In this document: positions 1 through 37,760 of the stretch, one piece after another
How positions within the stretch are numbered: position 1 is the stretch's first letter
Layout: each line of letters begins with the position of its first letter
Assembly: GCA_964016885.1 (NCBI GenBank)
Contig: OZ024743.1
Span: forward strand, 354,888,001 to 354,952,000
DNA from: Eledone cirrhosa
Taxonomy: Eukaryota
Length of the DNA stretch: 64,000 bases
Direction: 5' to 3'
The notes under the pieces: model-generated
Database searches by the model: none
What the model was told of the DNA's origin: nothing
Seen by the model: the letters and a program-made list of their open reading frames with translations, nothing else
Program-made: the position numbers and the translations under genes

Positions 1-2971
1 TCTATTATGCATCGGCTAAAGTCACCACTCACTTATGTGGAGTGAAGATGAAAAAACAAAGGAATTCGCACAATAAATCTACTTGGCAAGAGAACATCAA
101 TCGCCAAATAAACCTTCTCCGATCTGACATAGAAATTTTAACAAACTATAAAGTAGGTGAACATGTTAAACAAACTAAACTTAGAAAATTGAAAAAAAAG
201 TACAGTATAAAATCAACATGTGACATAGACATGCTGATAGAAATAATCAAGCAAAAAGTGTCGGCCAAAGCTGCTCGTATAAGGCGCTTTGAAAAACGAT
301 CTAGATTCTATAAGGACAATAATATGTTCAAAAACAACCAAAGAAACTTCTACAGCAAAATTGGTAAGTCAACAATAACTGCTAAATCAATACCACCCAA
401 GGAGGAAGTGCAAGAATTCTGGGAAAAGATCTGGGCAGAAGAAAAAGTTCATAACATACATGCCCCATGGATAGACAGACAAATGAAAGATACAGCTCAC
501 CTTGAGGAACAAACATGGGAAAATATAACAGTTGAACAGTTGCGCTTGGCTCTAAGAAAAACCAGCAAATGGAAATCCCCAGGAAAAGACAAAATACAAC
601 ACTTTTGGATAAATGCCTTCACAGAGTCTCATGAGCTGTTAGCCCAACTTTACAATGAAATAGTTAAGGAGCCAGAAAAGATACCATCATGGCTAGTTAA
701 CGGCATTACATTCCTGCTTCCGAAGAATGATGAGACAAACAATCCCAAAAATTACAGACCGATAACTTGCTTGACCACAATGTATAAAATTTTAACATCA
801 GTCCTAACTGAACACACATATGACCACCTGATAACAAATGACCTATTTCCCATTGAGCAGAAAGGGTGTAAACGAGGCTCATATGGCTGTAAGGATCAGC
901 TTCTCGTTAACAAAATGATACTGGAAGATTGTCATAATAGACACAAAAATCTATCGATTGCTTGGATAGAGTATAAAAAAGCATTCGATAGTTTGCCACA
1001 CAGTTGGATTGAAAAATGTTTAGAGATTTTCAAATATCCCCCGTTGTCAGGAGGTTTTTGTCATTCAGTATGAAGACATGGAAAACGACACTCCTTTTGA
1101 ATAGTGAAACAAAATCACTGGAAGCTGGAGAAGTTAATATTAATTGTGGAATTTTTCAGGGTGACTCTTTATCACCGCTTTTATTCTGCATCGCACTTAT
1201 ACCATTAAGTAAAATGCTCAATGAAACAAAACATGGATATAAAGTCATTGACAAAACCATTAATCACCTGTTCTACATGGATGACCTGAAACTATTTGCA
1301 AAAAATGATGAACAATTGCAAGGGCTATTATCCACTGTGGAGCAGTTCAGTGATGACATTAAAATGGAGTTTGGACTAGATAAATGCGCCAAAGCAACGT
1401 TCACCAGAAGAAAGCTGCTGAAGAGTTCAGACATTAATCTTGATCGGGGGGAACGTGATAAGAGAACTTGATCAAGAAAAAACTTACAAATATCTAGGTG
1501 TTTGTGAAGGAGACGGAATCAAGCACTCGACAATGAGGGAAAGGATAAGGAAGGAATGTTACCGCAGAGTAAGAGCATTCTTAAGAACGGAATTGAATGC
1601 AAGGAATAGGATCAATGCCATAAACACGCTTGCCATACCAGTAGTAACCTACAGTTACAATGTCATCAACTGGTCAAGCACAGAGATCCGTAGGCTCGAT
1701 ACAAAAATTCGAAAATTCTTAACCATGCACAGAATACATCACCTTAAGGCAGATATAGATAGAATATATCTCCCTAGGAAAGAAGGAGGACGTGGGTTAA
1801 TCCAGTTAGACATTGCGTTGAAAACTGCAACAATTGGATTATCTACATATCTAAGGGAATCACATGATTGGATGATCAAACTCGTTTTGAAACACGAAAG
1901 CACTAAAAGATCATATTCCATTACAAAAGATGCACAAAGATACAGTAATGGACTACAAATTTCAGAAGTCCCATTTACTGCTGAAATGGAAAACACAGAA
2001 AAAGCAAAGCAGGTAAAAGTAACTGCAAAGAAAGAACTGCTACAGAAACTGGCTAAGAAATGGCAAGAAAAGCCTCTGTATGGAAAATACCCAGAGCGAG
2101 CTAACAATCCTGATGTTGACAAAACTTTAACCCATCAGTGGTTGGCATCCTCTGGACTGAAATCGGAGACTGAGGGACTGATTATATCGGCACAAGATCA
2201 GTGTCTGCCAACAAAAAATTACCAAGCCAACATAATAAAAAATTGGGTGCAGCCCATTATGCCGTATATGCAAAAAACAACCAGAGACCATTGACCATAT
2301 AATTTCAATGTGCAGTCCTATAGCTCCAACTGAATACCTAAACAGGCATGACAGAGCTGCACAATACATACATTGGATAATGTGTAAGCATTTTGACCTG
2401 CCCCATCAAAAGAATTGGTAGGAACATCAACCAGCTCCCATACTTGAAAAAGATCACATCTCATTCTTGTGGAACTTTAGCATCCAAACAGACCGAAAAA
2501 TAGATGAAAATAGACCTGATATAATATTGAAGGACTTTAAAAAGAGTGTATGCCTGCTAATTGATATGTCTGTTCCAATAGACAAGAATGTATCTATAAA
2601 AACATTTGAAAAATTGAGCAAGTATAAGGACCTGGAGATAGAAATTGGAAAAATGTGGAAATTGAGAACTAAAACAATACCAGTGGTTGTAGGCGCTCTG
2701 GGAATGATACCTAAGGGGTCTAATGACTACTTATCGCAAATCCCAGGAAACCCGCGTATATGAGAAATACAAAAGATAGTACTAATGGGAACTGCCCATA
2801 TACTAAGGAAGATTCTGTCAATATAAGTACATCATAAGTCTAAACACTAAAGATGCATGTGTGAATATGTATGTTCTTTCTTGAACATGGCGGACCTTGT
2901 TGTCTCTTGAGGTCACTGGTTGTGACTTGGTGATAACTCGTATGAACATAAAGCAAGATAAATGCAACTGC
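1..2971 (+). mobile_element. R4/Dong-like RLE non-LTR retrotransposon, family A (decayed; 5' end outside window)
   Basis: Consecutive frameshifted ORFs 42-2763 carry RT motifs ([41 protein letters not shown]) and an RLE region (RHD, RPDI..D, KLSKYKDL); ~145 nt 3'UTR ends at (AAT)n. Dong-type R4 elements are known to target TAA repeats. Confidence 0.9.
42..2826 (+). pseudogene. RT + restriction-like endonuclease polyprotein of family A, disrupted
   Basis: Frame changes near 1040, 1450 and 2250; in-frame stops near 2418 and 2761; natural stop at 2824-2826 by comparison with the intact C-terminus at 50126-50644. Confidence 0.85.

Positions 2972-3028
<57 letters not shown>
2972..3028. repeat. 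(AAT)19 microsatellite between two R4/Dong copies
   Basis: Read directly from the sequence. Confidence 0.97.
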
Positions 3029-3600
3029 TATGGCTGGAGACATGATGTGATGGGCAGGGTGATCCACTGGCACCTATGCAAAGTAAACAATTTACCACAT
3101 TCTGAGAAATGGTATGAGCATAAGCCAGAGTCAGTGATATAAAACGAACAGGTGAAGGTGCTGTGGGATTTTAGGATACAGACGGACAAGAAACTGGAAC
3201 AAAATAGACCTGACCCGGTGGTTTTGGACAAGGAAAAAAGATCGTGCCTGATTGTGGATGTGGCCTTCCTATTCGACACGAGAGTGCAAGAGAAGAAGAG
3301 GGAGAAAATTAACCGATACCAGGACTTAAAGTGGGAGGTAAAAAAGATTTGGAACGGCCATTATGTCAAAGTGGTCCCGATTGTCATAGGCGCACAAGGT
3401 ACTATCTCAAAAAGTTTCCAGAGATGGTTAAAGAAAATTGGCTCCGCCACGCTTTTTGGAACGCTTCAAAAGGCATACTTGCTGGAAACAGCAAGAACCC
3501 ACCGATACATCCTGAATATCTGAGGCTGCAGGTAGTGGCTTGATATTCATTTCAACCAACATTCCAGTTAACTAACATCAATGACTGAGACTCAAAAACT
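3029..3600 (+). mobile_element. R4/Dong-like family B, 5'-truncated (RLE domain + 3'UTR)
   Basis: GWRHD..LWDFRIQTD..RPD..RYILNI matches the C-terminus of ORF 52089-53270; (AAT)n on both sides. Confidence 0.9.
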
Positions 3601-3617
3601 ATAATAATAATAATAAT

Positions 3618-4609
3618 TCGTGCCGATTGTGGATGCGGCCTGCCCATTCGACACGAGAGTGCAAGAGAAGGAGAGGGAGAAAATTAGTAAGGAGCCAATG
3701 CTCAGAGTTGTACTGAAGGACAATAGACCAGGGGATGTCCAAGGAGGAAATAACAACAAGGAGAAAGAGCAACCTTCATGAAAAATCCCTTCATAGTGCT
3801 TTCTTTGAGAAAACTGAATTTAGAGATCCATAGAAATGCAACTGGTTGAAAAGAGGAGACCTTAAAAAGGCTACAGAAGGAATGCTAATGGCTGCGCAAG
3901 AGCAGGCCCTCAAAACGAAGTGGTTGAAACACCATATTTAGAAGGGGGAGGCTAGCCCACTGTGCAGGATCTGTGGAGAGAGAGAAGACTGTGGCTCACA
4001 TTGTATCCGAGTGTAAACACCTAGCCCAGACTCACTATAAAGACTGGAGACATGATGTGATGTGCAGAGTGATACACTGGCACCTATGCAAAGTAAACAA
4101 TTTACCACATTCTGAGAAGTCATATGAGCATAAGCCAGAGTCGGTGATTGAAAACGATCAGGTGAAGGTGCTGTGGGATTTTAGGATACAGACGGACAAG
4201 AAACTGGAACACAATAGACCTGACCTGGTGGTTTGGACAAGGGAAAAAGGTCGTGCCTGATTGTGGATGTAGCCTGCCCATTTGACACGAGAGTGCAAGA
4301 GAAGGAGAGGGAGAAAATTAACGGATACCAGGACTTAAAGTGGGAGGTAAAAAGGATTTGGAACTGCCATGAAGTCAAACAGGTCCCGATTGTCATAGGC
4401 GCATTAGGTACTATCTCAAAGAGTTTCCAAGGATGGTTAACGAAAATTGGTCCCGCCCCGCTTTTTGGAACACTTCGAAAGGCATGCTTGCTGGGAACGG
4501 CAAGAACCCTCCGATACGTCCTGAATATCTGAGGCTGCAGGTAGTGGCTTGATATTCATTTCAACAAACTTTCCAGTTAAATAACATCAATGGCTGAGAC
4601 TCAAAGAAC
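3618..4609 (+). mobile_element. R4/Dong-like family B, 5'-truncated and rearranged
   Basis: 3618-3686 is a short RLE-region piece joined out of order to a ~920 bp 3' portion (CCHC knuckle, RLE, 3'UTR); flanked by (AAT)n. Confidence 0.88.

Positions 4610-4669
<60 letters not shown>
4610..4669. repeat. (AAT)20 microsatellite; tail-to-tail junction of Dong-B and Tx1 copy 1
   Basis: Read directly from the sequence. Confidence 0.97.
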
Positions 4670-4671
<2 letters not shown>

Positions 4672-4932
4672 TTTCTTTATTAACCACAAGGGTTTACATA
4701 AAGTAGACATTAAGGACAGTGCAGGACAATGCAGGACGGTACAAATGGGCATTTCTGCGTGTAAAAAAAACAAAAATAGAGGATGTAACAAAAATAACAA
4801 TGAAAATAACAATGAAAAATTCCCCAATAGGGGGGAGACTTCGGAGGGACATTTGTGGAGAAAGCCCAGTAAAAAGCCACAATGACCCTGACCACCAAGG
4901 CAAGTGCCCTCTCCCAGTTTTCCACCTTTAGT

Positions 4933-7900
4933 TTACAGATATATACTCAGAGTCGGCCCATTCACTCGGGCCATTCTTGCTTCTCTCACCCATCTTACAA
5001 CAAAATGCTGGGAAGAGAGCACTTCCTTCTCTACTCTGATTTTCCTTTTCAAATGAAATTTGAAAAAGTCAATCAGAGCATCACCGAAGAGGTAAGTGCT
5101 CGTCTTCAGCCCTTTCAAACGTGTCCACCATACTATCTCTTTCGCCATGGCCACCAGACAGATAAAAACTGCCTGCCCTTCCCGGCTAAAGGAGGAGGGC
5201 GGGGCAATCCTCACGATAGACTCAGATGATAGCTGGATCCGTCCTAAACGCGACAGCAGGTGTTCGACATAAACCCACAAGTCAGCAATTTTCGGACACT
5301 GGACGAGTGCGTGCAGGACGGTTTCGTCGCCCTGCGCGCATCTCGGACATGCCCGGCTGACGGCACCTCCATGCCTGTAGAGTTTATCCCGAACTGGCAA
5401 GGCTCCTCGGTAGCACTGCCAGGCCAGAGATTTCTGGAAGTTGTCCATAGGCCCTGGCCCGAAGGTTCTTCCGAAGAGATTGGCTAGTTGATTTTCGTCG
5501 ACGCCTAGAGTTTCCCCAAGTACGTCGTCGCTCTTCCCCTCCACTAATCCTCTATAGAACGCCGAGGTGGAGTTTCCACCGATCACATTGCCCGATTGGT
5601 CGAGGGCTGTGAGCGCCTGAAGACATTCCAGTCTCCAGGCGCTCCCTCTCGGTCTTCGCTTGACCCAGGACTGCAGCTCCGTCAAGGAAACGAGCTGGGG
5701 AAAAACGCGTCTAGCAAACGGCGACCACACCTGATCACCGTCGAGGAAGAGGTGGAGATGTCGTAGCCTGAGCGCGTGCCTGCGCATCATCAGCCACGGC
5801 ATGCCCAGCCCTCCACGTAGCGGGTGTTGACAACAGATGGACCGCCTGACCATCGGAGCACGTCCCTTCCACAAAAAGCGAAAGAGCAAACGCTCCAGCG
5901 CAGTCAGGCGAGGCTTAGGACAAGGTACGACGGTTAGGCGGTAGCAGATGACAGACGCGATGTACGCGTTAGCCACCTCCGCTCGACCTTTCAGGGATAG
6001 CTTCCTCTCCGCCCATTTCTGGGTGAGAGAAGCCACCCTGCTCGTCACCTCGTCCCAGTTTTTGTCCGTCTGGAGGTCCGGACCGAACCAGACCCCTAGC
6101 AATTTAACCGGTCCGTCCGTCCAGCGCCCGACGACGCTGTTGGACGGCATGGACCTGCCTCTCCAGGTGCCGAGCTGCAGGCCCACTGACTTTTCCTGGT
6201 TGATCATTGCTCCTGTCACCGCTTCGTATTCTCTTAGTGTAGTGCCGATCGCCTCGATGTGTTTGGCGTTCGACACCACTACGGTGACATCGTCCGCATA
6301 TGCTGACACGGATCTTCCGCATCCTAGTTCGCGCGGGACTCCCCTCAACGTCTCCAGTTTGTGCAGTAATGGCTCGAGAGTCAATACGTACAAGAGGGAC
6401 GAGAGGGGACATCCTTGGCGGACCGAGCGCATGATGTTGAACGGTTCCGACAGGTGACCGTTCACTCTCACCACAGAGCAGATGTCGCTGTGCATGGCAG
6501 CGATCCAGCCTCTGAAGACGGGCCCAAAGCCAGCCGCCCTCAGGACTGCCGCTAGGTAACGATGGTCGACCCTATCGAAAGCTTTCGACTGATCTAAATT
6601 GATCAAGGACCCACCCGTGCCAGGTTCCCTAGCTACCCTCTCTACGATGTATCGCATGAGGTGGAGGTTGTCGTGGATGGATCTGTCGGGAATGGCGCAT
6701 GTCTGCGCCTCTCCCACCAGACCACCAACGACAAGCGCCAACCTCTTTGCTAGCACCTTGGCCAAAATCTTAAACTCTGTGTTTAGCAGAGTTATGGGCC
6801 GGAAATTGTCTATGTTATCCCCCTTGTTCGGATCCTTTCTCAGCAGTGCCACCGCTCCTCGGCTCACAGAACTGGGAATTCTCCCGTTCTGTTGCCAGTT
6901 GCAGTAGACGTCCGCCAAGAGGCCTCCGAACAAGTCTGGCATCTGTACGTAAAGTTCATAGGGCAGACCATCCAAACCAGGCGATTTACCCCTTGTGCAG
7001 CCAGTCATTGCCTCCCTTACTTCAGCGGCTGTTATCGGCTTTTCGCAACACTTCGCCTCAGTGGCCGAGAGCCGCGGCAGTCCGTCGAGGTAGACACTAA
7101 AGTCCATCCCTCTACCCGGCCCCCCGCTGCCCCCGAACAGCTGAGCGAAGTGTCGCTGAAAAGCTTCACACATTTGCCCGGGATCGAGTAGCATGCGCCC
7201 GTCGTGGTCCACCAAAGACCGGATCGTGGCTTTGTTGCCACGACGCGCCTCCGCCACTCGGGCCCATTGAACGGCTTTCGTCCCCTCGTGTCTGAGAGCA
7301 CGCACCCTAGCTCTGACAACGCAGCCTTCGTGCTTTGCATTGAAGAATTGGTCAAGGGCCAATTTCGCCGCAAGCACGTCGGTCGCAATGCCTTTGCTAA
7401 GCGCCTCGTCTAATTTTCTAACTAGTTCTCCCTCTGCTCTATTTTTCTCTATTGCTAAAGCCTTACTAAACCTAATCGATTCTATTCTAATCGCTCTTTT
7501 CAGAGCAAACCACCACTTGTTGTTGACGATGGCCCCCGTCAACGCCCGCTTAACTAGTTCGCTAATCCGGTCTCTGTAGGCCTTGCGCGCTGGTAAGGAC
7601 GCGTTTAGCTTCCAGTAGCCGGGTCCTCGTCTATGAAGCCTATCTAAGTCAAGCACACAGATCACGAATTTGTGGTCCGTGTAGCTGACTATCTTGAATT
7701 GTGGACAGCCTATGCTAGACCTATCTATTTCCCTACAAAATACTCTATCTAGATATGATCTGGATGACCCTATGCGGTTTGTCCAAGTCCACATTGGCAC
7801 ATTCGGGAAATCCAATCGGTACCTGTCAGACAGTTCAAAACGCCTGAGCAGGTTGGTGAGGCTCTTGCACCCTCCACCCCTATCCGCTAATCCCACACAG

Positions 7901-8352
7901 TCCCAGCGTGCATCTAAGATCCCGTTCCAGTCGCCCACTAACACTAAAGAGCGCGACGTTCCAAGAAAGGTCTCCAGACGCCGGAAGAAATCAGGCCGCC
8001 CTGCTCCTGTCGGGGCATAGACGGCCACTAGCCTGAAAGCTTGCCCGTCTCCGCTGGTCACGTCCAGCACCACCAGCTTACCCTCTGGGTCCAGGAAGAT
8101 GGCCCGTATGGCGAGATCCAAACCTCTCCGAAAAAGCACAGCAACTCCTCCACCCGATCCAGGACGGCTGGGAGATGCGTACACATCGTAGCCGCCGAAG
8201 ATCGGTGCGAAGGCCCGTGCTTCGGAGATTCTGGTCTCGCTGATGGCCACTACATCTATGTTTAGTGACCTGAGGTCGTTGAGCAGGTGACCCTGCTTCC
8301 ATGACGACCCCAAGCCACGCGCATTTATGCTGCCTATTCTGAGTGAGGTCAT
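4933..8352 (-). CDS. LINE ORF2: APE endonuclease + reverse transcriptase + C-terminal CCHC zinc finger (1139 aa)
   Basis: SINARG, ISET, VYAP, GDWN, LDR, TDH (APE); GYWKLN linker typical of L1/Tx1; KSPGLDG, NFRPITLL, DQSKAFD, VRQGCPLS, YADD (RT); CPRC..ETVLHALVQC. Confidence 0.95.
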   Translation of the reverse strand: MTSLRIGSINARGLGSSWKQGHLLNDLRSLNIDVVAISETRISEARAFAPIFGGYDVYASPSRPGSGGGVAVLFRRGLDLAIRAIFLDPEGKLVVLDVTSGDGQAFRLVAVYAPTGAGRPDFFRRLETFLGTSRSLVLVGDWNGILDARWDCVGLADRGGGCKSLTNLLRRFELSDRYRLDFPNVPMWTWTNRIGSSRSYLDRVFCREIDRSSIGCPQFKIVSYTDHKFVICVLDLDRLHRRGPGYWKLNASLPARKAYRDRISELVKRALTGAIVNNKWWFALKRAIRIESIRFSKALAIEKNRAEGELVRKLDEALSKGIATDVLAAKLALDQFFNAKHEGCVVRARVRALRHEGTKAVQWARVAEARRGNKATIRSLVDHDGRMLLDPGQMCEAFQRHFAQLFGGSGGPGRGMDFSVYLDGLPRLSATEAKCCEKPITAAEVREAMTGCTRGKSPGLDGLPYELYVQMPDLFGGLLADVYCNWQQNGRIPSSVSRGAVALLRKDPNKGDNIDNFRPITLLNTEFKILAKVLAKRLALVVGGLVGEAQTCAIPDRSIHDNLHLMRYIVERVAREPGTGGSLINLDQSKAFDRVDHRYLAAVLRAAGFGPVFRGWIAAMHSDICSVVRVNGHLSEPFNIMRSVRQGCPLSSLLYVLTLEPLLHKLETLRGVPRELGCGRSVSAYADDVTVVVSNAKHIEAIGTTLREYEAVTGAMINQEKSVGLQLGTWRGRSMPSNSVVGRWTDGPVKLLGVWFGPDLQTDKNWDEVTSRVASLTQKWAERKLSLKGRAEVANAYIASVICYRLTVVPCPKPRLTALERLLFRFLWKGRAPMVRRSICCQHPLRGGLGMPWLMMRRHALRLRHLHLFLDGDQVWSPFARRVFPQLVSLTELQSWVKRRPRGSAWRLECLQALTALDQSGNVIGGNSTSAFYRGLVEGKSDDVLGETLGVDENQLANLFGRTFGPGPMDNFQKSLAWQCYRGALPVRDKLYRHGGAVSRACPRCAQGDETVLHALVQCPKIADLWVYVEHLLSRLGRIQLSSESIVRIAPPSSFSREGQAVFICLVAMAKEIVWWTRLKGLKTSTYLFGDALIDFFKFHLKRKIRVEKEVLSSQHFVVRWVREARMARVNGPTLSIYL

Positions 8353-8387
8353 GTTTAAAATAGAGTGGAAAAGATGGGAAAGACCAC

Positions 8388-10487
8388 TTACCGTATTTTT
8401 GGTAGAGGAGGGATGGTTTTTACATCCCTTTTCACTTGATCGTCTGGTGAAGGGACCGTTGAATCGTCCCTTCGGCTGGTCGTCGGCTCTTCTAAGAGAA
8501 TGTCTGAATATACTCTTCGATTAATGGTTCCTCCTAGGTCCCTGAAATCACCAACTGCGTTGGGGAATTTCGTTTTAATGTTTGTGTATTGTTTCTGTGC
8601 TATTTTTAGCAGTCTTATGTTAGTTGGCGTTTTGATTGGTGCTGGTATTATGTAGTCCTGTTGTGAAATGTCTGTGTGTTCAATTATGTAAGTCATTAGT
8701 TTCTTGTTGTGTGTGTTTATTGCCGTGCATTTGTTTTTCTGGGGGTGGGGTGTGGTTCTGCTATTTTCTTGTCGTTGTTGCTGGGTGTGTGTGTTTTGTT
8801 GTTGTGTTTGCGATGTTGGTGCTTGTGGTGGTGGTGTTGAAGGTGTTGTTGGCGGTGGGGTTGTCGCCGGTGGTGATGGTGGTGCTGGTGTGGGTGGTGA
8901 TGGTGTTGGTGGTGTTGCTGCTGTGGGTCTCTTTGCAGTAGACTTTACCCTTTTCTCATTTCTTTCCTCCCTTTTCAAAGGCGACGATGCGCTGCTTCTG
9001 CGTTTGTGCCTTCTTGAGACCTTTTGCCATCCCTCTCCCACCTCACACTCCATGTCTGATTCTGTAAGGTCGGGGAGGGGTACCAGCTCCACTCTTTCAC
9101 TTGTTGTTGTTGGTGATGTTTGCACTGGAGTCTCTGTTGCAGCTGCATTTGGTATTGCTGTTGTTGTTGTTAATATTTCCACTGCTGCTGCTGTCTTTGA
9201 TTTCCGTGGAGTGGGTATGGGTGCCACGGACCTATCGTTCCTGGTTGCCGCTTGTCCTGTTGCTGGTAGCCGTGGAACCGGATTCGGGAGGAGGGGGGTT
9301 TTCTCCTTTCTCAGGGTCTTCTCGTTGCAGAAGGCCCTGAGGTGAGTCTTCGATCCACAGCGAAAGCATTTCGGGCGTTTGCCCTCAACACTTATGGGCA
9401 GTTGAGTGCCGTTATCGAAGTCTATCACATCCGGGATAGCTTCGATGCACTCCTGGTTGGTTTGTATTAGCATCTCAATGGAGGAGCCGACCCAATCTTC
9501 TCTTACTTTTTTCTGTACTTGCAGTACAGTTGTTTTGTCCTCGATTCCGACGAGGACAGACGCGGCCAGCCAAGAAGGGGTCATTCCGGGGGGGACGTGG
9601 GTCAGTTTGACCCTCACAATTTTTTGCCCGCAGTAGGAGGGCACCAACACCATTTCCTCGCTCCTTAGGGTCACTACTGATTGGGCCTTTGCCTCCTGGG
9701 GTGTGGCAAAAAGTACGTCTACGGTGGCGTATTTTTTGCCTCGGGTGATGTGCGTTTTCCTCTGCCACACAGACCCCAAGGCTTTTTGTATTTGGGCCTC
9801 TGTGGCTCTTTCCACCCTACGGGATTTTGTACTTACTGTACGGTACGTGACCGTACAGTGCTCTTGGGTTTCGAAAAAATTTTTCGCTGCCTTGCAGATT
9901 GCTCGGTGTCCGTTCTTTGTCACCATCTTCTTCGCTTCCTCTAATTCCTCATTTGTTATGAGGATTGTTTCCAGGTTTTTCGCAATACCTGCAAATGAGA
10001 TTGGTTTTTCTCTGCTGTTGTTGTTGTCGTCAGAGCTGCTGGTACTTTTGTTGTTGCTGCAGGTACTACGACTACTGCCTCCGCCGCTGTTGCTGTGGTT
10101 GTTGTTGGTGTTGCTGCTGCTAATGGTGTTGTTGTTTATGCTGCTGGTGATGCTGTTGCGGCTGCTACTGTTGTTTTCATTGTCACTGTTGCTGTTGTTA
10201 TTACGGCTGCTACTGCTATTATTCCTGACGTCAGACGAATGAACTGGGTTTTCGTATTTCCCGCACACCTGTTTCGTCGCTGTCGTCGTCGTCGTGGAGA
10301 AACCTTGCACGCTTTGCACGAGACTTTTCTTTTCTTTCGTCGCTTGCGAAAGAGAAGGTAGGGAGAGAGACACATTTAAAGAAGGGAGGGAGAGAGACAA
10401 TCTTCTCTCTCCTGTAGTGATGATTGAGGAAGAAGAAGACGGAATGAGTGGGAGTGACGTATGAAATTTTTTTTTTTTGGTAGCCAT
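8388..10487 (-). CDS. LINE ORF1: gag-like nucleic-acid-binding protein with one CCHC knuckle (699 aa from ATG)
   Basis: CFRCGSKTHLRAFC knuckle; Asn/Ser- and Pro/Thr-rich low-complexity tracts; first ATG (MATKKKK) at 10487, whereas the track start at 10520 is a non-ATG codon. Confidence 0.88.
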   Translation of the reverse strand: MATKKKKFHTSLPLIPSSSSSIITTGERRLSLSLPSLNVSLSLPSLSQATKEKKSLVQSVQGFSTTTTTATKQVCGKYENPVHSSDVRNNSSSSRNNNSNSDNENNSSSRNSITSSINNNTISSSNTNNNHSNSGGGSSRSTCSNNKSTSSSDDNNNSREKPISFAGIAKNLETILITNEELEEAKKMVTKNGHRAICKAAKNFFETQEHCTVTYRTVSTKSRRVERATEAQIQKALGSVWQRKTHITRGKKYATVDVLFATPQEAKAQSVVTLRSEEMVLVPSYCGQKIVRVKLTHVPPGMTPSWLAASVLVGIEDKTTVLQVQKKVREDWVGSSIEMLIQTNQECIEAIPDVIDFDNGTQLPISVEGKRPKCFRCGSKTHLRAFCNEKTLRKEKTPLLPNPVPRLPATGQAATRNDRSVAPIPTPRKSKTAAAVEILTTTTAIPNAAATETPVQTSPTTTSERVELVPLPDLTESDMECEVGEGWQKVSRRHKRRSSASSPLKREERNEKRVKSTAKRPTAATPPTPSPPTPAPPSPPATTPPPTTPSTPPPQAPTSQTQQQNTHTQQQRQENSRTTPHPQKNKCTAINTHNKKLMTYIIEHTDISQQDYIIPAPIKTPTNIRLLKIAQKQYTNIKTKFPNAVGDFRDLGGTINRRVYSDILLEEPTTSRRDDSTVPSPDDQVKRDVKTIPPLPKIR

Positions 10488-10980
10488 GTTTTTTTGTTTA
10501 AAATGAAATTTTGGGTACAAAACCCCAATAACTGGCTATTTAACCCCGAAGGGCCAAATAACGGACAGAAAGACCCCTCTCACGAGGAGGAGGGTGTCTT
10601 TATCAACAATTTGGTTCAAGTTTTAAACAATTTACAATTGTTTTAACGGTTAAAAATTACTATACCTTACAGAGCCGAGCCTCCGTCAACCATGGCATTC
10701 AATAATAATAATAATAATGATTTCTTTATTAACCACAAGGGTTTACATAAAGTAGACATTAAGGACAGTGCAGGACAATGCAGGACGGTACAAATGGGCA
10801 TTTCTGCGTGTAAAAAAACAAAAACAGAGGATGTAACAAAAATAACAATGAAAATAACAATGAAAAATTCCCCAATAGGGGGGAGACTTCGGAGGGACAT
10901 TTGTGGAGAAAGCCCAGTAAAAAGCCACAATGACCCTGACCACCAAGGCAAGTGCCCTCTCCCAGTTTTCCACCTTTAGT

Positions 10981-13900
10981 TTACAGATATATACTCAGAG
11001 TCGGCCCATTCACTCGGGCCATTCTTGCTTCTCTCACCCATCTTTCAACAAAATGCTGGGAAGAGAGCACTTCCTTCTCTACTCTGATTTTCCTTTTCAA
11101 ATGAAATTTGAAAAAGTCAATCAGAGCATCACCGAAGAGGTAAGTGCTTGTCTTCAGCCCTTTCAAACGTGTCCACCATACTATCTCTTTCGCCATGGCC
11201 ACCAGACAGATAAAAACTGCCTGCCCGTCCCGGCTAAAGGAGGAGGGCGGGGCAATCCTCACAATAGACTCAGATGATAGCTGGATCCGTCCTAAACGCG
11301 ACAGCAGGTGTTCGACATAAACCCACAAGTCAGCAATTTTCGGACACTGGACGAGTGCGTGCAGGACGGTTTCGTCGCCCTGCGCGCATCTCGGACATGC
11401 CCGGCTGACGGCACCTCCATGCCTGTAGAGTTTATCCCGAACTGGCAAGGCTCCTCGGTAGCACTGCCAGGCCAGAGATTTCTGGAAGTTGTCCATAGGC
11501 CCTGGCCCGAAAGTTCTTCCGAAGAGATTGGCTAGTTGATTTTCGTCGACGCCTAGAGTTTCCCCAAGTACGTCGTCGCTCTTCCCCTCCACTAATCCTC
11601 TATAGAACGCCGAGGTGGAGTTTCCACCGATCACATTGCCCGATTGGTCGAGGGCTGTGAGCGCCTGAAGACATTCCAGTCTCCAGGCGCTCCCTCTCGG
11701 TCTTCGCTTGACCCAGGACTGCAGCTCCGTCAAGGAAACGAGCTGGGGAAACACGCGTCTAGCAAACGGCGACCACACCTGATCACCGTCGAGGAAGAGG
11801 TGGAGATGTCGTAGCCTGAGCGCGTGCCTGCGCATCATCAGCCACGGCATGCCCAGCCCTCCACGTAGCGGGTGTTGACAACAGATGGACCGCCTGACCA
11901 TCGGAGCACGTCCCTTCCACAAAAAGCGAAAGAGCAAACGCTCCAGCGCAGTCAGGCGAGGCTTAGGACAAGGTACGACGGTTAGGCGGTAGCAGATGAC
12001 AGACGCGATGTACGCGTTAGCCACCTCCGCTCGACCTTTCAGGGATAGCTTCCTCTCCGCCCATTTCTGGGTGAGAGAAGCCACCCTGCTCGTCACCTCG
12101 TCCCAGTTTTTGTCCGTCTGGAGGTCCGGACCGAACCAGACCCCTAGCAATTTAACCGGTCCGTCCGTCCAGCGCCCGACGACGCTGTTGGACGGCATGG
12201 ACCTGCCTCTCCAGGTGCCGAGCTGCAGGCCCACTGACTTTTCCTGGTTGATCATTGCTCCTGTCACCGCTTCGTATTCTCTTTGTGTAGTGCCGATCGC
12301 CTCGATGTGTTTGGCGTTCGACACCACTACGGTGACATCGTCCGCATATGCTGATACGGATCTTCCGCATCCTAGTTCGCGCGGGACCCCCCTCAACGTC
12401 TCCAGTTTGTGCAGTAATGGCTCGAGAGTCAATACGTACAAGAGGGACGAGAGGGGACATCCTTGGCGGACCGAGCGCATGATGTTGAACGGTTCCGACA
12501 GGTGACCGTTCACTCTCACCACAGAGCAGATGTCGCTGTGCATGGCAGCGATCCAGCCTCTGAAGACGGGCCCAAAGCCAGCCGCCCTCAGGACTGCCGC
12601 TAGGTAACGATGGTCGACCCTATCGAAAGCTTTCGACTGATCTAAATTGATCAAGGACCCACCCGTGCCAGGTTCCCTAGCTACCCTCTCTACGATGTAT
12701 CGCATGAGGTGGAGGTTGTCGTGGATGGATCTGTCGGGAATGGCGCATGTCTGCGCCTCTCCCACCAGACCACCAACGACAAGCGCCAACCTCTTTGCTA
12801 GCACCTTGGCCAAAATCTTAAACTCTGTGTTTAGCAGAGTTATGGGCCGGAAATTGTCTATGTTATCCCCCTTGTTCGGATCCTTTCTCAGCAGTGCCAC
12901 CGCTCCTCGGCTCACAGAACTGGGAATTCTCCCGTTCTGTTGCCAGTTGCAGTAGACGTCCGCCAAGAGGCCTCCGAACAAGTCTGGTATCTGTACGTAA
13001 AGTTCATAGGGCAGACCATCCAAACCAGGCGATTTACCCCTTGTGCAGCCAGTCATTGCCTCCCGTACTTCAGCGGCTGTTATCGGCTTTTCGCAACACC
13101 TCGCCTCAGTGGCCGAGAGCCGCGGCAGTCCGTCGAGGTAGACACTAAAGTCCATCCCTCTACCCGGCCCCCCGCTGCCCCCGAACAGCTGAGCGAAGTG
13201 TCGCTGAAAAGCTTCACACATTTGCCCGGGATCGAGTAGCATGCGCCCGTCGTGGTCCACCAAAGACCGGATCGTGGCTTTGTTGCCACGACGCGCCTCC
13301 GCCACTCGGGCCCATTGAACGGCTTTCGTCCCCTCGTGTCTGAGAGCACGCACCCTAGCTCTGACAACGCAGCCTTCGTGCTTTGCATTGAAGAATTGGT
13401 CAAGGGCCAATTTCGCCGCAAGCACGTCGGTCGCAATGCCTTTGCTAAGCGCCTCGTCTAATTTTCTAACTAGTTCTCCCTCTGCTCTATTTTTCTCTAT
13501 TGCTAAAGCCTTACTAAACCTAATCGATTCTATTCTAATCGCTCTTTTCAGAGCAAACCACCACTTGTTGTTGACGATGGCCCCCGTCAACGCCCGCTTA
13601 ACTAGTTCGCTAATCCGGTCTCTGTAGGCCTTGCGCGCTGGTAAGGACGCGTTTAGCTTCCAGTAGCCGGGTCCTCGTCTATGAAGCCTATCTAAGTCAA
13701 GCACACAGGTCACGAATTTGTGGTCCGTGTAGCTGACTATCTTGAATTGTGGACAGCCTATGCTAGACCTATCTATTTCCCTACAAAATACTCTATCTAG
13801 ATATGATCTGGATGACCCTATGCGGTTTGTCCAAGTCCACATTGGCACATTCGGGAAATCCAATCGGTACCTGTCAGACAGTTCAAAACGCCTGAGCAGG

Positions 13901-14400
13901 TTGGTGAGGCTCTTGCACCCTCCACCCCTATCCGCTAATCCCACACAGTCCCAGCGTGCATCTAAGATCCCGTTCCAGTCGCCCACTAACACTAAAGAGC
14001 GGGACGTTCCAAGAAAGGTCTCCAGACGCCGGAAGAAATCAGGCCGCCCTGCTCCTGTCGGGGCATAGACGGCCACTAGCCTGAAAGCTTGCCCGTCTCC
14101 GCTGGTCACGTCCAGCACCACCAGCTTACCCTCTGGGTCCAGGAAGATGGCCCGTATGGCGAGATCCAAACCTCTCCGAAAAAGCACAGCAACTCCTCCA
14201 CCCGATCCAGGACGGCTGGGAGATGCGTACACATCGTAGCCGCCGAAGATCGGTGCGAAGGCCCGTGCTTCGGAGATTCTGGTCTCGCTGATGGCCACTA
14301 CATCTATGTTTAGTGACCTGAGGTCGTTGAGCAGGTGACCCTGCTTCCATGACGACCCCAAGCCACGCGCATTTATGCTGCCTATTCTGAGTGAGGTCAT
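10981..14400 (-). CDS. LINE ORF2 (APE-RT-CCHC), copy 2
   Basis: 1139 aa, only a handful of substitutions relative to copy 1. Confidence 0.95.
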   Translation of the reverse strand: MTSLRIGSINARGLGSSWKQGHLLNDLRSLNIDVVAISETRISEARAFAPIFGGYDVYASPSRPGSGGGVAVLFRRGLDLAIRAIFLDPEGKLVVLDVTSGDGQAFRLVAVYAPTGAGRPDFFRRLETFLGTSRSLVLVGDWNGILDARWDCVGLADRGGGCKSLTNLLRRFELSDRYRLDFPNVPMWTWTNRIGSSRSYLDRVFCREIDRSSIGCPQFKIVSYTDHKFVTCVLDLDRLHRRGPGYWKLNASLPARKAYRDRISELVKRALTGAIVNNKWWFALKRAIRIESIRFSKALAIEKNRAEGELVRKLDEALSKGIATDVLAAKLALDQFFNAKHEGCVVRARVRALRHEGTKAVQWARVAEARRGNKATIRSLVDHDGRMLLDPGQMCEAFQRHFAQLFGGSGGPGRGMDFSVYLDGLPRLSATEARCCEKPITAAEVREAMTGCTRGKSPGLDGLPYELYVQIPDLFGGLLADVYCNWQQNGRIPSSVSRGAVALLRKDPNKGDNIDNFRPITLLNTEFKILAKVLAKRLALVVGGLVGEAQTCAIPDRSIHDNLHLMRYIVERVAREPGTGGSLINLDQSKAFDRVDHRYLAAVLRAAGFGPVFRGWIAAMHSDICSVVRVNGHLSEPFNIMRSVRQGCPLSSLLYVLTLEPLLHKLETLRGVPRELGCGRSVSAYADDVTVVVSNAKHIEAIGTTQREYEAVTGAMINQEKSVGLQLGTWRGRSMPSNSVVGRWTDGPVKLLGVWFGPDLQTDKNWDEVTSRVASLTQKWAERKLSLKGRAEVANAYIASVICYRLTVVPCPKPRLTALERLLFRFLWKGRAPMVRRSICCQHPLRGGLGMPWLMMRRHALRLRHLHLFLDGDQVWSPFARRVFPQLVSLTELQSWVKRRPRGSAWRLECLQALTALDQSGNVIGGNSTSAFYRGLVEGKSDDVLGETLGVDENQLANLFGRTFGPGPMDNFQKSLAWQCYRGALPVRDKLYRHGGAVSRACPRCAQGDETVLHALVQCPKIADLWVYVEHLLSRLGRIQLSSESIVRIAPPSSFSRDGQAVFICLVAMAKEIVWWTRLKGLKTSTYLFGDALIDFFKFHLKRKIRVEKEVLSSQHFVERWVREARMARVNGPTLSIYL

Positions 14401-14435
14401 GTTTAAAATAGAGTGGAAAAGATGGGAAAGACCAC

Positions 14436-16532
14436 TTACCGTACTTTTGGTAGAGGAGGGATGGTTTTTACATCCCTTTTCACTTGATCGTCTGGTGAAG
14501 GGACCGTTGAATCGTCCCTTCGGCTAGTCGTCGGCTCTTCTAAGAGAATGTCTGAATATACTCTTCGATTGATGGTTCCTCCTAGGTCCCTGAAATCACC
14601 AACTGCGTTGGGGAATTTCGTTTTAATGTTTGTGTATTGTTTCTGTGCTATTTTTAGCAGTCTTATGTTAGTTGGCGTTTTGATTGGTGCTGGTATTATG
14701 TAGTCCTGTTGTGAAATGTCTGTGTGTTCAATTATGTAAGTCATTAGTTTCTTGTTGTGTGTGTTTATTGCCGTGCATTTGTTTTTCTGGGGGTGGGGTG
14801 TGGTTCTGCTATTTTCTTGTCGTTGTTGCTGGGTGTGTGTGTTTTGTTGTTGTGTTTGCGATGTTGGTGCTTGTGGTGGTGGTGTTGAAGGTGTTGTTGG
14901 CGGTGGGGTTGTCGCCGGTGGTGATGGTGGTGCTGGTGTGGGTGGTGATGGTGTTGGTGGTGTTGCTGCTGTGGGTCTCTTTGCAGTAGACTTTACCCTT
15001 TTCTCATTTCTTTCCTCCCTTTTCAAAGGCGACGATGCGCTGCTTCTGCGTTTGTGCCTTCTTGCGACCTTTTGCCATCCCTCTCCCACCTCACACTCCA
15101 TGTCTGATTCTGTAAGGTCGGGGAGGGGTACCAGCTCCACTCTTTCACTTGTTGTTGTTGGTGATGTTTGCACTGGAGTCTCTGTTGCAGCTGCATTTGG
15201 TATTGCTGTTGTTGTTGTTAATATTTCCACTGCTGCTGCTGTCTTTGATTTCCGTGGAGTGGGTATGGGTGCCACGGACCTATCGTTCCTGGTTGCCGCT
15301 TGTCCTGTTGCTGGTAGCCGTGGAGCCGGATTCGGAAGGAGGGGGGTTTTCTCCTTTCTCAGGGTCTTCTCGTTGCAGAAGGCCCTGAGGTGAGTCTTCG
15401 ATCCACAGCGAAAGCATTTCGGGCGTTTGCCCTCAACACTTATGGGCAGTTGAGTGCCGTTATCGAAGTCTATCACATCCGGGATAGCTTCGATGCACTC
15501 CTGGTTGGTTTGGATTAGCATCTCAATGGAGGAGCCGACCCAATCTTCTCTTACTTTTTTCTGTACTTGCAGTACAGTTGTTTTGTCCTCGATTCCGACG
15601 AGGACAGACGCGGCCAGCCAAGAAGGGGTCATTCCGGGGGGGACGTGGGTCAGTTTGACCCTCACAATTTTTTGCCCGCAGTAGGAGGGCACCAACACCA
15701 TTTCCTCGCTCCTTAGGGTCACTACTGATTGGGCCTTTGCCTCCTGGGGTGTGGCAAAAAGTACGTCTACGGTGGCATATTTTTTGCCTCGGGTGATGTG
15801 CGTTTTCCGCTGCCACACAGACCCCAAGGCTTTTTGTATTTGGGCCTCTGTGGCTCTTTCCACCCTACGGGATTTTGTACTTACTGTACGGTACGTGACC
15901 GTACAGTGCTCTTGGGTTTCGAAAAATTTTTCCGCTGCCTTGCAGATTGCTCGGTGTCCATTCTTTGTCACCATCTTCTTCGCTTCCTCTAATTCCTCAT
16001 TTGTTATGAGGATTGTTTCCAAGTTTTTCGCAATACCTGCAAATGAGATTGGTTTTTCTCTGCTGTTGTTGTTGTCGTCAGAGCTGCTGGTACTTTTGTT
16101 GTTGCTGCAGGTACTACGACTACTGCCTCCGCCGCTGTTGCTGTGGTTGTTGTTGGTGTTGCTGCTGCTAATGCTGTTGTTGTTTATGCTGCTGGTGATG
16201 CTGTTGCGGCTGCTACTGTTGTTTTCATTGTCACTGTTGCTGTTGTTATTACGGCTGCTACTGCTATTATTCCTGACGTCAGACGAATGAACTGGGTTTT
16301 CGTATTTCCCGCACACCTGTTTCGTCGCTGTCGTCGTCGTCGTGAAGAAACCTTGCACGCTTTGCACGAGACTTTTCTTTTCTTTCGTCACTTGCGAAAG
16401 AGAAGGGAGGGAGAGAGACACATTTAAAGAAGGGAGGGAGAGAGACAATCTTCTCTCTGCTGTAGTGATGATTGAGGAAGAAGAAGACGGAATGAGTGGG
16501 AGTGACGTATGAAATTTCTTTTTCGTAGCCAT
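14436..16532 (-). CDS. LINE ORF1 (CCHC), copy 2
   Basis: Same protein as 8388-10487; ATG at 16532. Confidence 0.88.
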   Translation of the reverse strand: MATKKKFHTSLPLIPSSSSSIITTAERRLSLSLPSLNVSLSLPSLSQVTKEKKSLVQSVQGFFTTTTTATKQVCGKYENPVHSSDVRNNSSSSRNNNSNSDNENNSSSRNSITSSINNNSISSSNTNNNHSNSGGGSSRSTCSNNKSTSSSDDNNNSREKPISFAGIAKNLETILITNEELEEAKKMVTKNGHRAICKAAEKFFETQEHCTVTYRTVSTKSRRVERATEAQIQKALGSVWQRKTHITRGKKYATVDVLFATPQEAKAQSVVTLRSEEMVLVPSYCGQKIVRVKLTHVPPGMTPSWLAASVLVGIEDKTTVLQVQKKVREDWVGSSIEMLIQTNQECIEAIPDVIDFDNGTQLPISVEGKRPKCFRCGSKTHLRAFCNEKTLRKEKTPLLPNPAPRLPATGQAATRNDRSVAPIPTPRKSKTAAAVEILTTTTAIPNAAATETPVQTSPTTTSERVELVPLPDLTESDMECEVGEGWQKVARRHKRRSSASSPLKREERNEKRVKSTAKRPTAATPPTPSPPTPAPPSPPATTPPPTTPSTPPPQAPTSQTQQQNTHTQQQRQENSRTTPHPQKNKCTAINTHNKKLMTYIIEHTDISQQDYIIPAPIKTPTNIRLLKIAQKQYTNIKTKFPNAVGDFRDLGGTINRRVYSDILLEEPTTSRRDDSTVPSPDDQVKRDVKTIPPLPKVR

Positions 16533-16775
16533 GTTGTTTTTTTGTTTAAAATGAAATTTTGGGTACAAAACCCCAATAACTGGTTATTTAACCCCGAAGG
16601 GCCAAATAACGGACAGAAAGACCCCTCTCACGAGGAGGAGGGTGTCTTTATCAACAATTTGGTTCAAGTTTTAAACAATTTACAATTGTTTTAACGGTTA
16701 AAAATTACTATACCTTACAGAGCCGAGCCTCCGCCAACCATGGCATTCAATAATAATAATAATAATAATAATAAT

Positions 16776-16910
16776 TGTTTCTACTTTTGGCACAAGGCCA
16801 GCAATTATCCACTGCATTACTGGTACTTTATTTCATCGACCCCGTGAGGATGAAAGGCAAAGTTAACCTCGGTGGGATTTGAACTCAGAATGGCAAAGAC
16901 CGTAACTCTC
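16776..16910 (-). mobile_element. tRNA-derived SINE (family S1), 5'-truncated
   Basis: Minus strand has B box GAGTTCAAATCC, core GCCTTTCATCC..GGGGTCGAT..GTACCAG and 3' end GGCCTTGTGCCAAAAGTAGAAACA followed by (ATT)n; (AAT)n on both sides. Confidence 0.85.
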
Positions 16911-16939
16911 ATAATAATAATAATAATAATAATAATAAT

Positions 16940-17114
16940 TGTTTCTACTTTTGGCACAAGGCCAGCTATTACCCCAGTGTATTACTGGTACTTTATTTTA
17001 TCGACCCCGTAAGGATGAAAGGCAAAGTTAACCTCGGCGGGATTTGAACTCAGAATAGCAAGGGCCGTAACTCAATACGTCCGACCCTCTACCGATACTG
17101 CCAATCCACCGCCC
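16940..17114 (-). mobile_element. tRNA-derived SINE S1, full length
   Basis: A-box-like TGGCAGTATCGG, B box GTTCAAATCC, same core and tail; (AAT)n on both sides. Confidence 0.88.
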
Positions 17115-17130
17115 TAATAATAATAATAAT

Positions 17131-18140
17131 GATTTCATTTATTAGCCACCAGGGTCGACATGTAGGGGACAATACAAAGACAGGGACAGTGGGGGTTTAC
17201 AATAAGGTCGAGTAAAAGTGCACAATGGCAAGACTAATTTAACAATGACAATATAAAAATATAAAATATACTATGCATAAATATAACAAAATAAATTCCC
17301 CGATAGGGGGTGTACGACCCTGGGGTGCTTCAGGTACCCCACCAATCCTGAACCACCCTGCGCTCCTAGGCGAGCACCCCTCTCCTCAAGTTAGCCAGCC
17401 TATAGGCGCATGATCAGAGTAGGCCCATTCACACGAACCATTCTCGCCACATTCACCCACCTTTTAGCAAATATACTGGGGGGCCGCACTTCTCTCTACA
17501 CCCTCACCTTCCTTTCCAGGTGAAACTTGAAGAAGTTGATGAGGGATTGGCCGAAGAGAAAAGTGTCTGTCTTTAGTCCTTTCAACCTGGTCCACCATAT
17601 AATCTCTTTCGCAACTGCCACCAGACAGGAAAATTTCCTGCTCTTCCTGACCTAAGGAAGACGGTGGATCGATCTTCACTATGGACTCGGCCGATAGCCG
17701 GATTCGTTCCACACGCGACAGTAGCTGTTCGACATAACTCCACAAGTAAGTAATGCACGGACATTGGACAAGTGCGTGCAGAACGGTTTCTTCGTTCTGT
17801 GCGCATCTTGGGCAGGTCCGTCTGAAAGCACTTCCGTGCCTGTAGAGTTTATCCCGAACCGGCATTCCCCCCGGTAGCACTGCCAGGCGAGGGATTTCTG
17901 AAAATTGTCCATCGTCCCCGGCTCAAAAGTCCTACGGTACAGACTGGTCAGTTCGACTTCGTCGAGGCCCAAAGCTTCTCCGAGCGCGTCATCGCACTTG
18001 CCCACCACTAATCCTCTATAGAACTCGAGAGTGGAAGTTCCACTTATCGCATTGCCCGCTTGGTTGAGGGCAGTGAGTGCTTGGCAACATTCCAGGTGCC
18101 AGTCACCCAGTCTCGGTCTCTTCTTGACCCAGGACTGCAG
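17131..18140 (-). mobile_element. Tx1-like LINE, third family, 5'-truncated and decayed
   Basis: LQSWVKKRPR..NFQKSLAWQCY..CPRCAQ..ETVLHALVQC is homologous to the ORF2 C-terminus; distinct 3'UTR ending CCCTGGTGGCTAATAAATGAAATC then (ATT)n. Confidence 0.88.

Positions 18141-31081: not shown

Positions 31082-31143
<62 letters not shown>
30983..31143. repeat. Compound trinucleotide tract (CAG/CAA/GAT) ending in (AAT)n
   Basis: Read directly from the sequence. Confidence 0.9.
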
Positions 31144-31144
<1 letters not shown>

Positions 31145-31381
31145 TTTTCTTCATTAACCACAAGGGTTTACATAAAGTAGACATTAAGGACAGTACAGGA
31201 CAATTCAGCACGGTACAAATGGGCATTTCTGCGTGTAAAAAAAACAGAGGATGAAATAAAATAACAAAGAAAAATTCCCCAATAGGGGGGAGACTTCCGA
31301 GGGACATTTGAAGCCCATTAAAAGACCACAGTGACCCTGACCACCAGGGCAAGTGCCCTCTCCCAGTTTTCCACCCTTAAT

Positions 31382-34300: not shown

Positions 34301-34773
34301 CTATCCGCTAATCCCACACAGTCCCAGCGTGCATCTAAGATCCCATTCCAGTCGCCCACTAACACTAAAGAGTGGGTCGTTCCAAGAAAGTTCTCCAGAC
34401 GCCGGAAGAAATCAGGACGCCCTGCTCCTGTTGGGGCATAGACGGCCACTAGCCTGAAAGCTTGCCCGTCTCCGCTGGTCACGTCCAGCACCACCAACTT
34501 ACCTTCTGGCTCCAGGAAGATGGCCCGTATGGCGAGATCCAAACCTCTCCGTAAAAGCACAGCAACTCCTCCACCCGATCCCGGACGGCTGGGAGATGCG
34601 TACACATCGTAGCCGCCGAAGATCGGTGCTAAGGCCCGTGCTTTGGAGATTCTGGTCTCGCTGATGGCCACTACATCTATGTTTAGTGACCTGAGGTCGT
34701 TGAGCAGGTATCTCTGCTTCCATGACGACCCCAAGCCACGCGCATTTATGCTGCCTATTCTGAGTGAGGTCAT
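31382..34773 (-). pseudogene. Disrupted ORF2 (APE-RT-CCHC)
   Basis: At least seven fragments in different frames; YADD changed to YAED. Confidence 0.9.
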
Positions 34774-34807
34774 GTTCAAATGGAGTGGAAAAGAAGGGAA
34801 AGACCAC

Positions 34808-36730: not shown

Positions 36731-36948
36731 GATTTCTCAAAGAAAATTTTTTTTTGTTTGATAATTATAAAAAGTTTAAATTTTGGGCTCAAGGCCCCAA
36801 TCTTTTTGAGTGTCCTTTTCAGAAATCAATGTATGTGCACTTATATACAGTTAACAATAAATATTTTCCATAAATGGCAATTTTAAACAACTGAAAATAA
36901 CAAACCTTTGCGGAGCTCACGATAATACGATTTACTTCGTAGGTCGCC

Positions 36949-36984
<36 letters not shown>

Positions 36985-36985
<1 letters not shown>

Positions 36986-37672: not shown

Positions 37673-37693
37673 AATAATAATAATAATAATAAT

Positions 37694-37760
37694 AGTGGCT
37701 TGATATTCATTCCAACGGACTTTCCAGTTAACCAACATCAATGACTGAGATTCAAGGAAT
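37694..37760 (+). mobile_element. R4/Dong family B, 3'UTR-only insertion (~65 bp)
   Basis: AGTGGCTTGATATTC..GACTGAGATTCAAGG matches 53281-53344; (AAT)n on both sides. Confidence 0.85.

Follow-up and report, generated by a model that had tools for sequence, protein, structure and literature searches.

Tx1-like and Dong-like LINEs on opposite strands of the (AAT)n microsatellite and their mixed arrays in Eledone cirrhosa

Several long interspersed nuclear elements (LINEs) have been described from microsatellites. Dong, a member of the R4 clade, inserts in the TAA microsatellite (PMC3812793), and in Bombyx mori it bears a hepatitis delta virus (HDV)-like ribozyme (PMC3774820). In the Tx1 clade, Kibi occupies (TC)n, Koshi (TTC)n and crocodilian families (TTCC)n or (TTTC)n; the crocodilian SINEU was likely moved by Tx1-Mar, shows tandem sequential insertions and has a weaker target preference in some families (PMC4494074). 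Keno, with an apurinic/apyrimidinic endonuclease-like domain (APE), and Utopia, with a restriction-like endonuclease (RLE), evolved in parallel on U2 small nuclear RNA genes (PMC4640811), and 5' ends common to LINE clades (Nimb and RTE; ingi and L1Tc; the turnover of L1 5' untranslated regions, UTRs) have been put down to template switching (PMC4758252). From Octopus vulgaris, active Dong-R4 and L1-Tx1 elements and hotspots were reported in a paper whose accessible part holds no target analysis (PMC13282606). In the present study a stretch of 64,000 nucleotides (nt) of Eledone cirrhosa (the window; C4:354,888,001-354,952,000 of the 3.0 Gb assembly) was analysed together with further loci of the same genome. 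In it Tx1-like LINEs with APE, Dong-like LINEs with RLE and a short interspersed nuclear element (SINE) stand in arrays parted by (AAT)n.

Each ingredient of this system has a precedent, and the combination was not met in the literature searched, as far as its accessible sections reach (the above and, for the precedents jointly, PMC3747384, PMC8967140, PMC9115989 and PMC4824008; Repbase, subscription papers and supplements lay outside the scope): neither an (ATT)n-specific Tx1, mixed Dong/Tx1 arrays and a Tx1 partner of an octopod SINE, nor 5' ends common to elements across the APE/RLE divide were found there.

The Dong elements of the window resemble B. mori Dong, DongAg and the snail DongBg in the TAA target and in a single open reading frame (ORF) with reverse transcriptase (RT), CCHC and PD..D..K motifs, and are 34-37% identical to lepidopteran relatives; unlike known Dong, two families of 36% identity have one leader resembling a Tx1 5'UTR and are interleaved with APE elements. 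No HDV-like ribozyme of the B. mori kind was found in them, Rfam giving no ribozyme match at E ≤ 1 across the window and a strict HDV descriptor (run with no positive control) giving 0 folds. The Tx1 elements, like Kibi, Koshi and the crocodilian families, are two-ORF APE-RT LINEs of the L1 group in a microsatellite, but their target is (ATT)n and common to an RLE element. With Keno and Utopia the system has in common that APE and RLE elements use one target, which here is no gene site but a dispersed microsatellite, used on opposite strands, with the repeat left on both sides and long mixed arrays. The SINE, unlike SINEU, is linked to its putative partner by a common 3' hairpin, has what by eye seems a head of transfer RNA (tRNA) type, and leaves about 50 tails per 600 kb. 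Unlike in Nimb/RTE and ingi/L1Tc, 5' ends are nearly identical between two RLE families and possibly extend across the APE/RLE divide.

Flanks and orientation of the two LINEs

The reading that we favour, with a probability of roughly 0.8, is that young Tx1 elements insert in (ATT)n and Dong elements in (AAT)n, on opposite strands and with the repeat on both sides, and that the mixed arrays likely grew by successive insertion. The two endonuclease types, APE and RLE, may have converged on one microsatellite, with RNA-tail pairing as a serious rival source of the preference. As a natural system it is very young and of high copy number, with thousands of near-identical copies, many of them with open frames.

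Tx1A, the main Tx1 family, measures 6031 nt and has an ORF1 of 699 aa with a CCHC knuckle and an ORF2 of 1139 aa in which Pfam finds APE-RT-zf-RVT; its best match in PDB is L1 ORF2p (E 2.7e-52, versus 1.3e-21 for R2). Two ORFs, an APE-RT-zinc ORF2, membership in the L1 group and sequence-specific insertion are traits of the Tx1 clade, and the label follows this architecture and targeting rather than phylogeny, the homologue matches bearing no element names. Over ORF2 pieces Tx1B is about 72-92% and Tx1D about 59-76% identical to Tx1A, and a Tx1C piece 52%.

Genome-wide, (ATT)3 lies directly before 2,291 of 2,369 exact 26-nt Tx1A 5' ends and in a single phase; at 30 of 30 fetched loci (ATT)n precedes the 5' end in one phase, and the length of the run and the DNA beyond it vary among copies. 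When distinct junctions (at least 90% identity; loci L001-L310 and the window) were tabulated, at least three ATT units were found before all 35 full-length and 16 of 26 truncated Tx1 5' ends; among the remaining ten truncated junctions, four lie against a further piece of Tx1, two follow just two units and four fall in other classes. The 3' end carries the element's own repeat in 59 of 61 Tx1 cases. Lengths of target site duplications (TSDs) of Tx1 and Dong could not be read inside pure repeats.

Dong-A, in an intact copy, and Dong-B have a single ORF of 1216 and 1130 aa, respectively, each with RT, CCHC and PD..D..K motifs; the two proteins are 35.6% identical, and the RT is nearer to R2 than to L1 among PDB matches. 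The name Dong likewise rests on architecture and target rather than phylogeny, its homologue matches too bearing no element names. There are 1,482 exact Dong leader starts genome-wide; on the reverse strand, where each site is listed once, 512 of 756 have (AAT)4 within 6 nt; at 26 of the first 30 leader sites at least three units lie within about 25 nt (by eye). In the junction set at least three AAT units precede 97 of 145 Dong 5' junctions, mostly of truncated copies (71 of 108 for truncated copies alone), and the 3' end bears the own repeat in 104 of 108. Dong-B is very young. A Dong-B protein query gave 43,003 candidates, and all 150 that were scored are identical over 116 aa, all on C1 and many in open frames of 1141 codons.

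The sequence-only reading had put RLE elements on the AAT strand and APE elements on the opposite one, and this holds genome-wide, reversed orientation being found at none of the 206 sampled Tx1 and Dong 5' junctions; two exceptions came from a targeted search. For both LINEs the tabulated 5' flanks are mostly not unique sequence and the orientation is not random, which bears out its repeat target; for the SINE as a repeat-specific element the flanks speak against it. As background, three ATT units stand just upstream of 26 of 18,000 random positions, and 1,251 of the 600,000 bases sampled in 60 evenly spaced stretches of 10 kb belong to perfect runs of at least four AAT units. In this evenly spaced DNA alone, the own repeat precedes 4 of 4 Tx1 and 7 of 12 Dong 5' junctions.

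The SINE and the Dong leader

The last 30 nt of the SINE align with the 3' ends of Tx1: a 4-bp stem with a compensatory change, a 5-nt loop CT(T/G)GT, GAAA and ATT. A test on 15 sequences gave 83% paired cells and a covariation of 0.50, which none of 500 shuffles reached and slid controls fell below; the stem is only 4 bp, and the sequences were hand-picked, their relatedness inflating the covariation test. The hairpin was not found downstream of ten LINE RT loci of other kinds in random DNA. A partnership of the SINE with an RTE-type LINE was rejected, as RTE-looking RT loci, within 600 kb, end mostly in (ATG)n and lack the hairpin. The 176-nt copy at 16940..17115 has a head with motifs resembling A and B boxes (by eye), which we take to be of tRNA type.

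In 600 kb of evenly spaced DNA 50 SINE tails were found, with the SINE body upstream in 47 and only one or two ATT units in 44; 15 TSDs could be read, of 10-19 nt, 13 of them beginning with ATTAT. The SINE agrees with Tx1 in strand and in this short motif. At least three ATT units, however, precede just 4 of 35 SINE heads in random DNA (50 of 18,000 windows as background), which does not support it as a repeat-specific element; it is enriched in the arrays yet mostly dispersed. It is likely a passenger of Tx1, copied by the Tx1 protein and needing just a short ATTAT site, and a likely partner LINE can thus be named for a very abundant SINE. Of the three unrelated retroelement types that had been proposed to meet on the microsatellite, two are left, since the SINE has the Tx1 3' hairpin and probably brings no third machinery, and sits mostly at short ATTAT sites. 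At L041:1410-1700 a short Tx1A 3' end is fused directly to a SINE-like body, possibly a template-switch chimera.

Full-length Dong copies begin with a leader of 0.8-1.3 kb that had been overlooked in the earlier annotation and is common to both families. Of 45 distinct leaders, 33 belong to Dong-B copies and the remaining 12 to Dong-A copies. Nine of these 12 have a B-linked counterpart 98-99% identical over 300 nt, and both types are intermixed in the tree. The first 30 leader sites by position lead to Dong-A 13 times and to Dong-B 16 times, with one unassigned. Repeat-free junctions from B to A at 40268/40278 and 50104 show that joins between Dong-B and Dong-A do occur, and Dong copies lying in the same orientation have likely traded leaders and bodies, by template switching or by recombination.

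The first 230 nt of the leader are colinear with Tx1 5'UTRs: they contain a 16-nt motif that matches Tx1D exactly, a tract rich in T and, similarly spaced, a run of A with ATGG. Judged against window shuffles, z-scores are 3.2-6.0 for Tx1A and Tx1D, whereas Tx1E and Tx1F reach only -0.2 to 2.1. A profile built from Dong leaders matches Tx1A and Tx1D at E 0.016-0.044, the next match having E 4.1, and five of five leaders outscore all but three of 10,200 genomic windows, which were not in register; these three are Tx1A 5' ends. On these similarities common descent of the Dong leader and the Tx1 5'UTR appears slightly the better account, the alternative being convergence on a host promoter motif. 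Common descent is opposed by the failure of a single Tx1A 5'UTR query to find the Dong leaders, by the mere E 0.45-5.1 that a profile of eight Tx1 sequences reached on them, and by a tblastn search that gave no Tx1 ORF1 protein remnant in them. That the ATG opens ORF1 in Tx1A and only short frames in Dong suggests Tx1 as the donor. Within the motif common to the 5' ends of Dong (37835-37845, plus strand) and Tx1 (10664-10670, minus strand), 30-50 nt from the start, stands GTAAG, a putative splice donor-like sequence.

Growth of the arrays and rival explanations

Runs on both sides of Tx1 and Dong copies have medians of 8-11 units, and a further member of these families often lies beyond the repeat: at 30 loci each, this was seen 22 times on the Tx1A 5' side, 21 on the Tx1A 3' side, 24 on the Dong-B 3' side and 20 on the Dong 5' side, a few family labels being unreliable and the Tx1A 5' set being confirmed by eye in 20 of 30. 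Conversely, of 34 runs of at least five AAT units in the evenly spaced 600 kb, 20 adjoin an element and 13 are flanked by elements at both ends, which suggests that many long AAT microsatellites of this genome are retroelement junctions. LINEs integrate by target-primed reverse transcription; on this model the nick and the priming would fall on the AAT strand for Tx1 and on the ATT strand for Dong. Since the target is duplicated and the repeat tail is added, a single run would give rise to two, and every insertion would add a target. Retroelement hotspots in octopod-type genomes might be explained in this way. The resulting mixed arrays are tens of kb long, and their parts were likely swapped between neighbours.

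The five Tx1A copies of the window region are 11-37 substitutions apart. The copy at 4670..10700 differs from the adjoining Tx1A by 37 substitutions and from a copy on C2 by one; the neighbours are of separate origin and no product of local duplication. The window mixes seven families or subfamilies, truncated at differing points. Serial insertion, which had been proposed for arrays in general, is supported for the window Tx1A copies by this comparison of sequences, while some arrays elsewhere look locally duplicated and were likely lengthened in that way.

Several observations weigh against our reading. At C2:188.05 Mb four of five Tx1A copies are 0-3 substitutions apart with identical marked spacers of 54 nt (the fifth is 13-14 substitutions off), and at C2:353.6 Mb six ORF-broken Dong-A copies differ by 1-9 substitutions, the one that was translated having no open frame above 445 aa; both arrays are better matched by duplication than by fresh insertion. 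Three AAT units are missing at 48 of the 145 Dong junctions, of which 17 adjoin another Dong piece, seven follow (AAG)n, three have two units and 21 are of other kinds, some of these last being alignment-edge artefacts. A search aimed at the reversed case, which otherwise returned mostly starts of Tx1D type, gave two Dong starts directly after (ATT)n (L311, L333). The sampled loci are mostly best matches and their neighbours, and no more than 4 Tx1 and 12 Dong 5' junctions come from evenly spaced DNA. Neither an empty allele nor a read or contig spanning the array was seen among the available contigs and restriction site-associated DNA (RAD-seq) reads, which break at repeats.

The two C2 arrays, and one at C4:288.5 Mb in which a unit of Tx1A and a Dong fragment is present twice with 4 substitutions between them, would be expected if arrays arose for the most part by tandem duplication on the spot, through unequal crossover or copying by read-through, and just the first insertion was targeted. 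As a general account we consider this improbable, since in the window adjoining copies resemble each other less than copies on other chromosomes do, the window is a mixture of seven families or subfamilies, and neighbours in other Tx1A arrays are 10-15 substitutions apart. Far less probable still is that full-length copies bring the preceding repeat with them in their RNA, acquired by upstream read-through and inherited rather than targeted. In its favour, Tx1A has an exact 5' junction with a single phase, and in B. mori a ribozyme releases Dong from a transcript shared with TAA (PMC3774820, accessible part), but truncated copies also follow the repeat (16 of 26 Tx1, 71 of 108 Dong), which marks it as target, not merely as part of the RNA, and largely refutes this origin; copies moreover vary in the number of repeat units and in the DNA past them. 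Least probable of all is an assembly artefact of near-identical repeats, to which the identity of copies above 99% and the missing spanning read or contig would lend themselves, as the copies have distinct substitutions and the same kinds of junction are met thousands of times in the genome.

A closer contender, though one we rate below our own account, concerns the source of the preference for long repeats. It would lie mainly in pairing of the RNA 3' tail with the nicked primer, the Tx1 nuclease cutting any ATTAT-like site and long tails priming only in long runs. The SINE, likely served by the same protein, ends in just one or two ATT units in 44 of 50 cases and is found at short ATTAT sites in unique DNA; the same protein appears to take a 5-nt site, and long-repeat specificity may therefore be partly a matter of tail pairing. 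Sister Tx1 families (55-59% identity) retain the hairpin and end in (ATCT)n-like tails, with one tandem pair (L183). Such pairing as the main source is opposed by the one fixed phase at 2,291 Tx1A 5' junctions and by published Tx1-clade specificity, put down mainly to the endonuclease in the accessible part of PMC4494074, and the SINE-Tx1 partnership on which it leans is itself only likely. We favour that endonuclease and tail pairing both act, with the nick preference in the protein. With two unrelated nucleases on opposite strands and the SINE as a built-in control, the system is a test bed for nuclease versus RNA-tail pairing.

Taken jointly, the results allow a tentative picture, to which we give somewhat less than even odds. 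The microsatellite would be an exchange ground on which the RLE element Dong took its 5' promoter/UTR from the APE element Tx1, replacing the ribozyme route of B. mori, and the leader would pass between Dong families of 36% identity; the same Tx1 machinery would drive the dominant SINE, and the group would make most long (AAT)n runs.

Layout of the window and minor observations

The features are collected in Table 1, negative coordinates in the text denoting positions left of the window start. Over 1-18140 the order of Dong-A, two Dong-B, two Tx1, two SINEs and a third Tx1 family, parted by (AAT)n, was found as first read, with all RLE elements on the plus strand and all APE elements and both SINEs on the minus strand. 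The array is not limited to about 18 kb: it reaches left to about -32,989, for about 51 kb and 16 elements in total, and its Dong-A copy at 1..2971 is full length, starting at -1987 with the common leader, with a broken ORF. The pattern does recur farther right, not as two separate arrays at 31.1-37.8 and 40.3-53.5 kb but as one block at 31084-53428, in which 37788-40268 is a Dong-B copy with a 5' leader of 1.2 kb. Nor does the repeat stand at each junction, being missing at about 3685, at 40268/40278 and at 50104, the last two of which join Dong-B to Dong-A. Across the window Rfam gave only microsatellite-driven matches of microRNA type, under their cut-offs. ARAGORN found no tRNA.

Table 1. 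Elements and repeat runs of the two arrays in the window
Feature	Position	Strand	Remarks
Dong-A (single-ORF RLE-type LINE), 3' part	1..2971	+	RVT_1 matches and array map; 3' end 2971
(AAT)19 spacer	2972..3028	+	
Dong-B, 5'-truncated	3029..3602	+	91% to Dong-B 3' end; then (AAT)5 at 3603-3617
Dong-B, 5'-truncated	3618..4609	+	internal jump at about 3685 without repeat; then (AAT)20 at 4610-4669
Tx1A, full length, 6031 nt	4670..10700	-	both ORFs open; 3' hairpin and (ATT)n tail
(AAT)6 spacer	10701..10718	+	5' flank of one Tx1A is tail of the next
Tx1A, full length	10719..16748	-	37 substitutions from adjoining copy
SINE, 5'-truncated	16776..16912	-	flanked by (AAT)9 at 16749-16775 and 16913-16939
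SINE, 176 nt	16940..17115	-	Tx1-type 3' hairpin; (AAT)5 at 17116-17130
Tx1C, 3' piece	17131..18140	-	52% aa to Tx1A ORF2 C-terminus; 5' side not repeat
(AAT)20, then Tx1B, full length	31084..36948	-	ORFs broken
(AAT)12; Tx1B, truncated, 36985-37672 (-); (AAT)7; Dong-B 3' tip, 37694-37766 (+); (AAT)7	36949..37787		
Dong 5' leader, common to Dong-A and Dong-B	37788..39020	+	first 230 nt Tx1 5'UTR-like
Dong-B 5' body joined without repeat to Dong-A 3' tip (40278-40400)	39021..40400	+	
Tx1A, full length, both ORFs open	40454..46484	-	between (AAT)17 and (AAT)15
Dong-B body without leader, joined at 50104 without repeat to Dong-A 3' end	46530..50785	+	then (AAT)20
Dong-B, 5'-truncated	50845..53428	+	then (AAT)24 and (AAG)n run

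The right end of the first array, at 18140, adjoins an unrelated hairpin repeat: the border at 18141-19250 consists of a 100-nt hairpin and a dispersed repeat that was found again in 4 of the 60 evenly spaced stretches. In the C2:188.05-188.08 Mb array (L221-L224) the middle Tx1A differs at 14 spread sites, yet an identical marked spacer of 54 nt flanks it at either end; this may reflect a long target duplication or conversion of a whole copy. At L311 and L333 the order is (AAT)n, then (ATT)m, then the Dong start, and these inverted junctions may have come from fold-back synthesis.

Distant Tx1 families (L183:5260-5560, L168, L159, L282; 49-59% aa identity at the C-terminus) have a similar 3' hairpin with (ATCT)n-like tails, and at L183 two such copies stand in tandem across an (ATCT)n-like run, which suggests a target shift within the Tx1 clade. 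Of Tx1A at window positions 9300-11200, 0.69-0.89 of sampled words occur in sequencing runs of four organisms, the pieces differing by 0-16 letters; recent shared ancestry or horizontal transfer may account for this similarity. Runs of (AAG)n are present at 53429-53500 and at many loci (L007, L023, L065, L082), often separating (AAT)n from a Dong 5' junction or next to the 5' flank of a Tx1, and may be products of slippage synthesis or older compound repeats.

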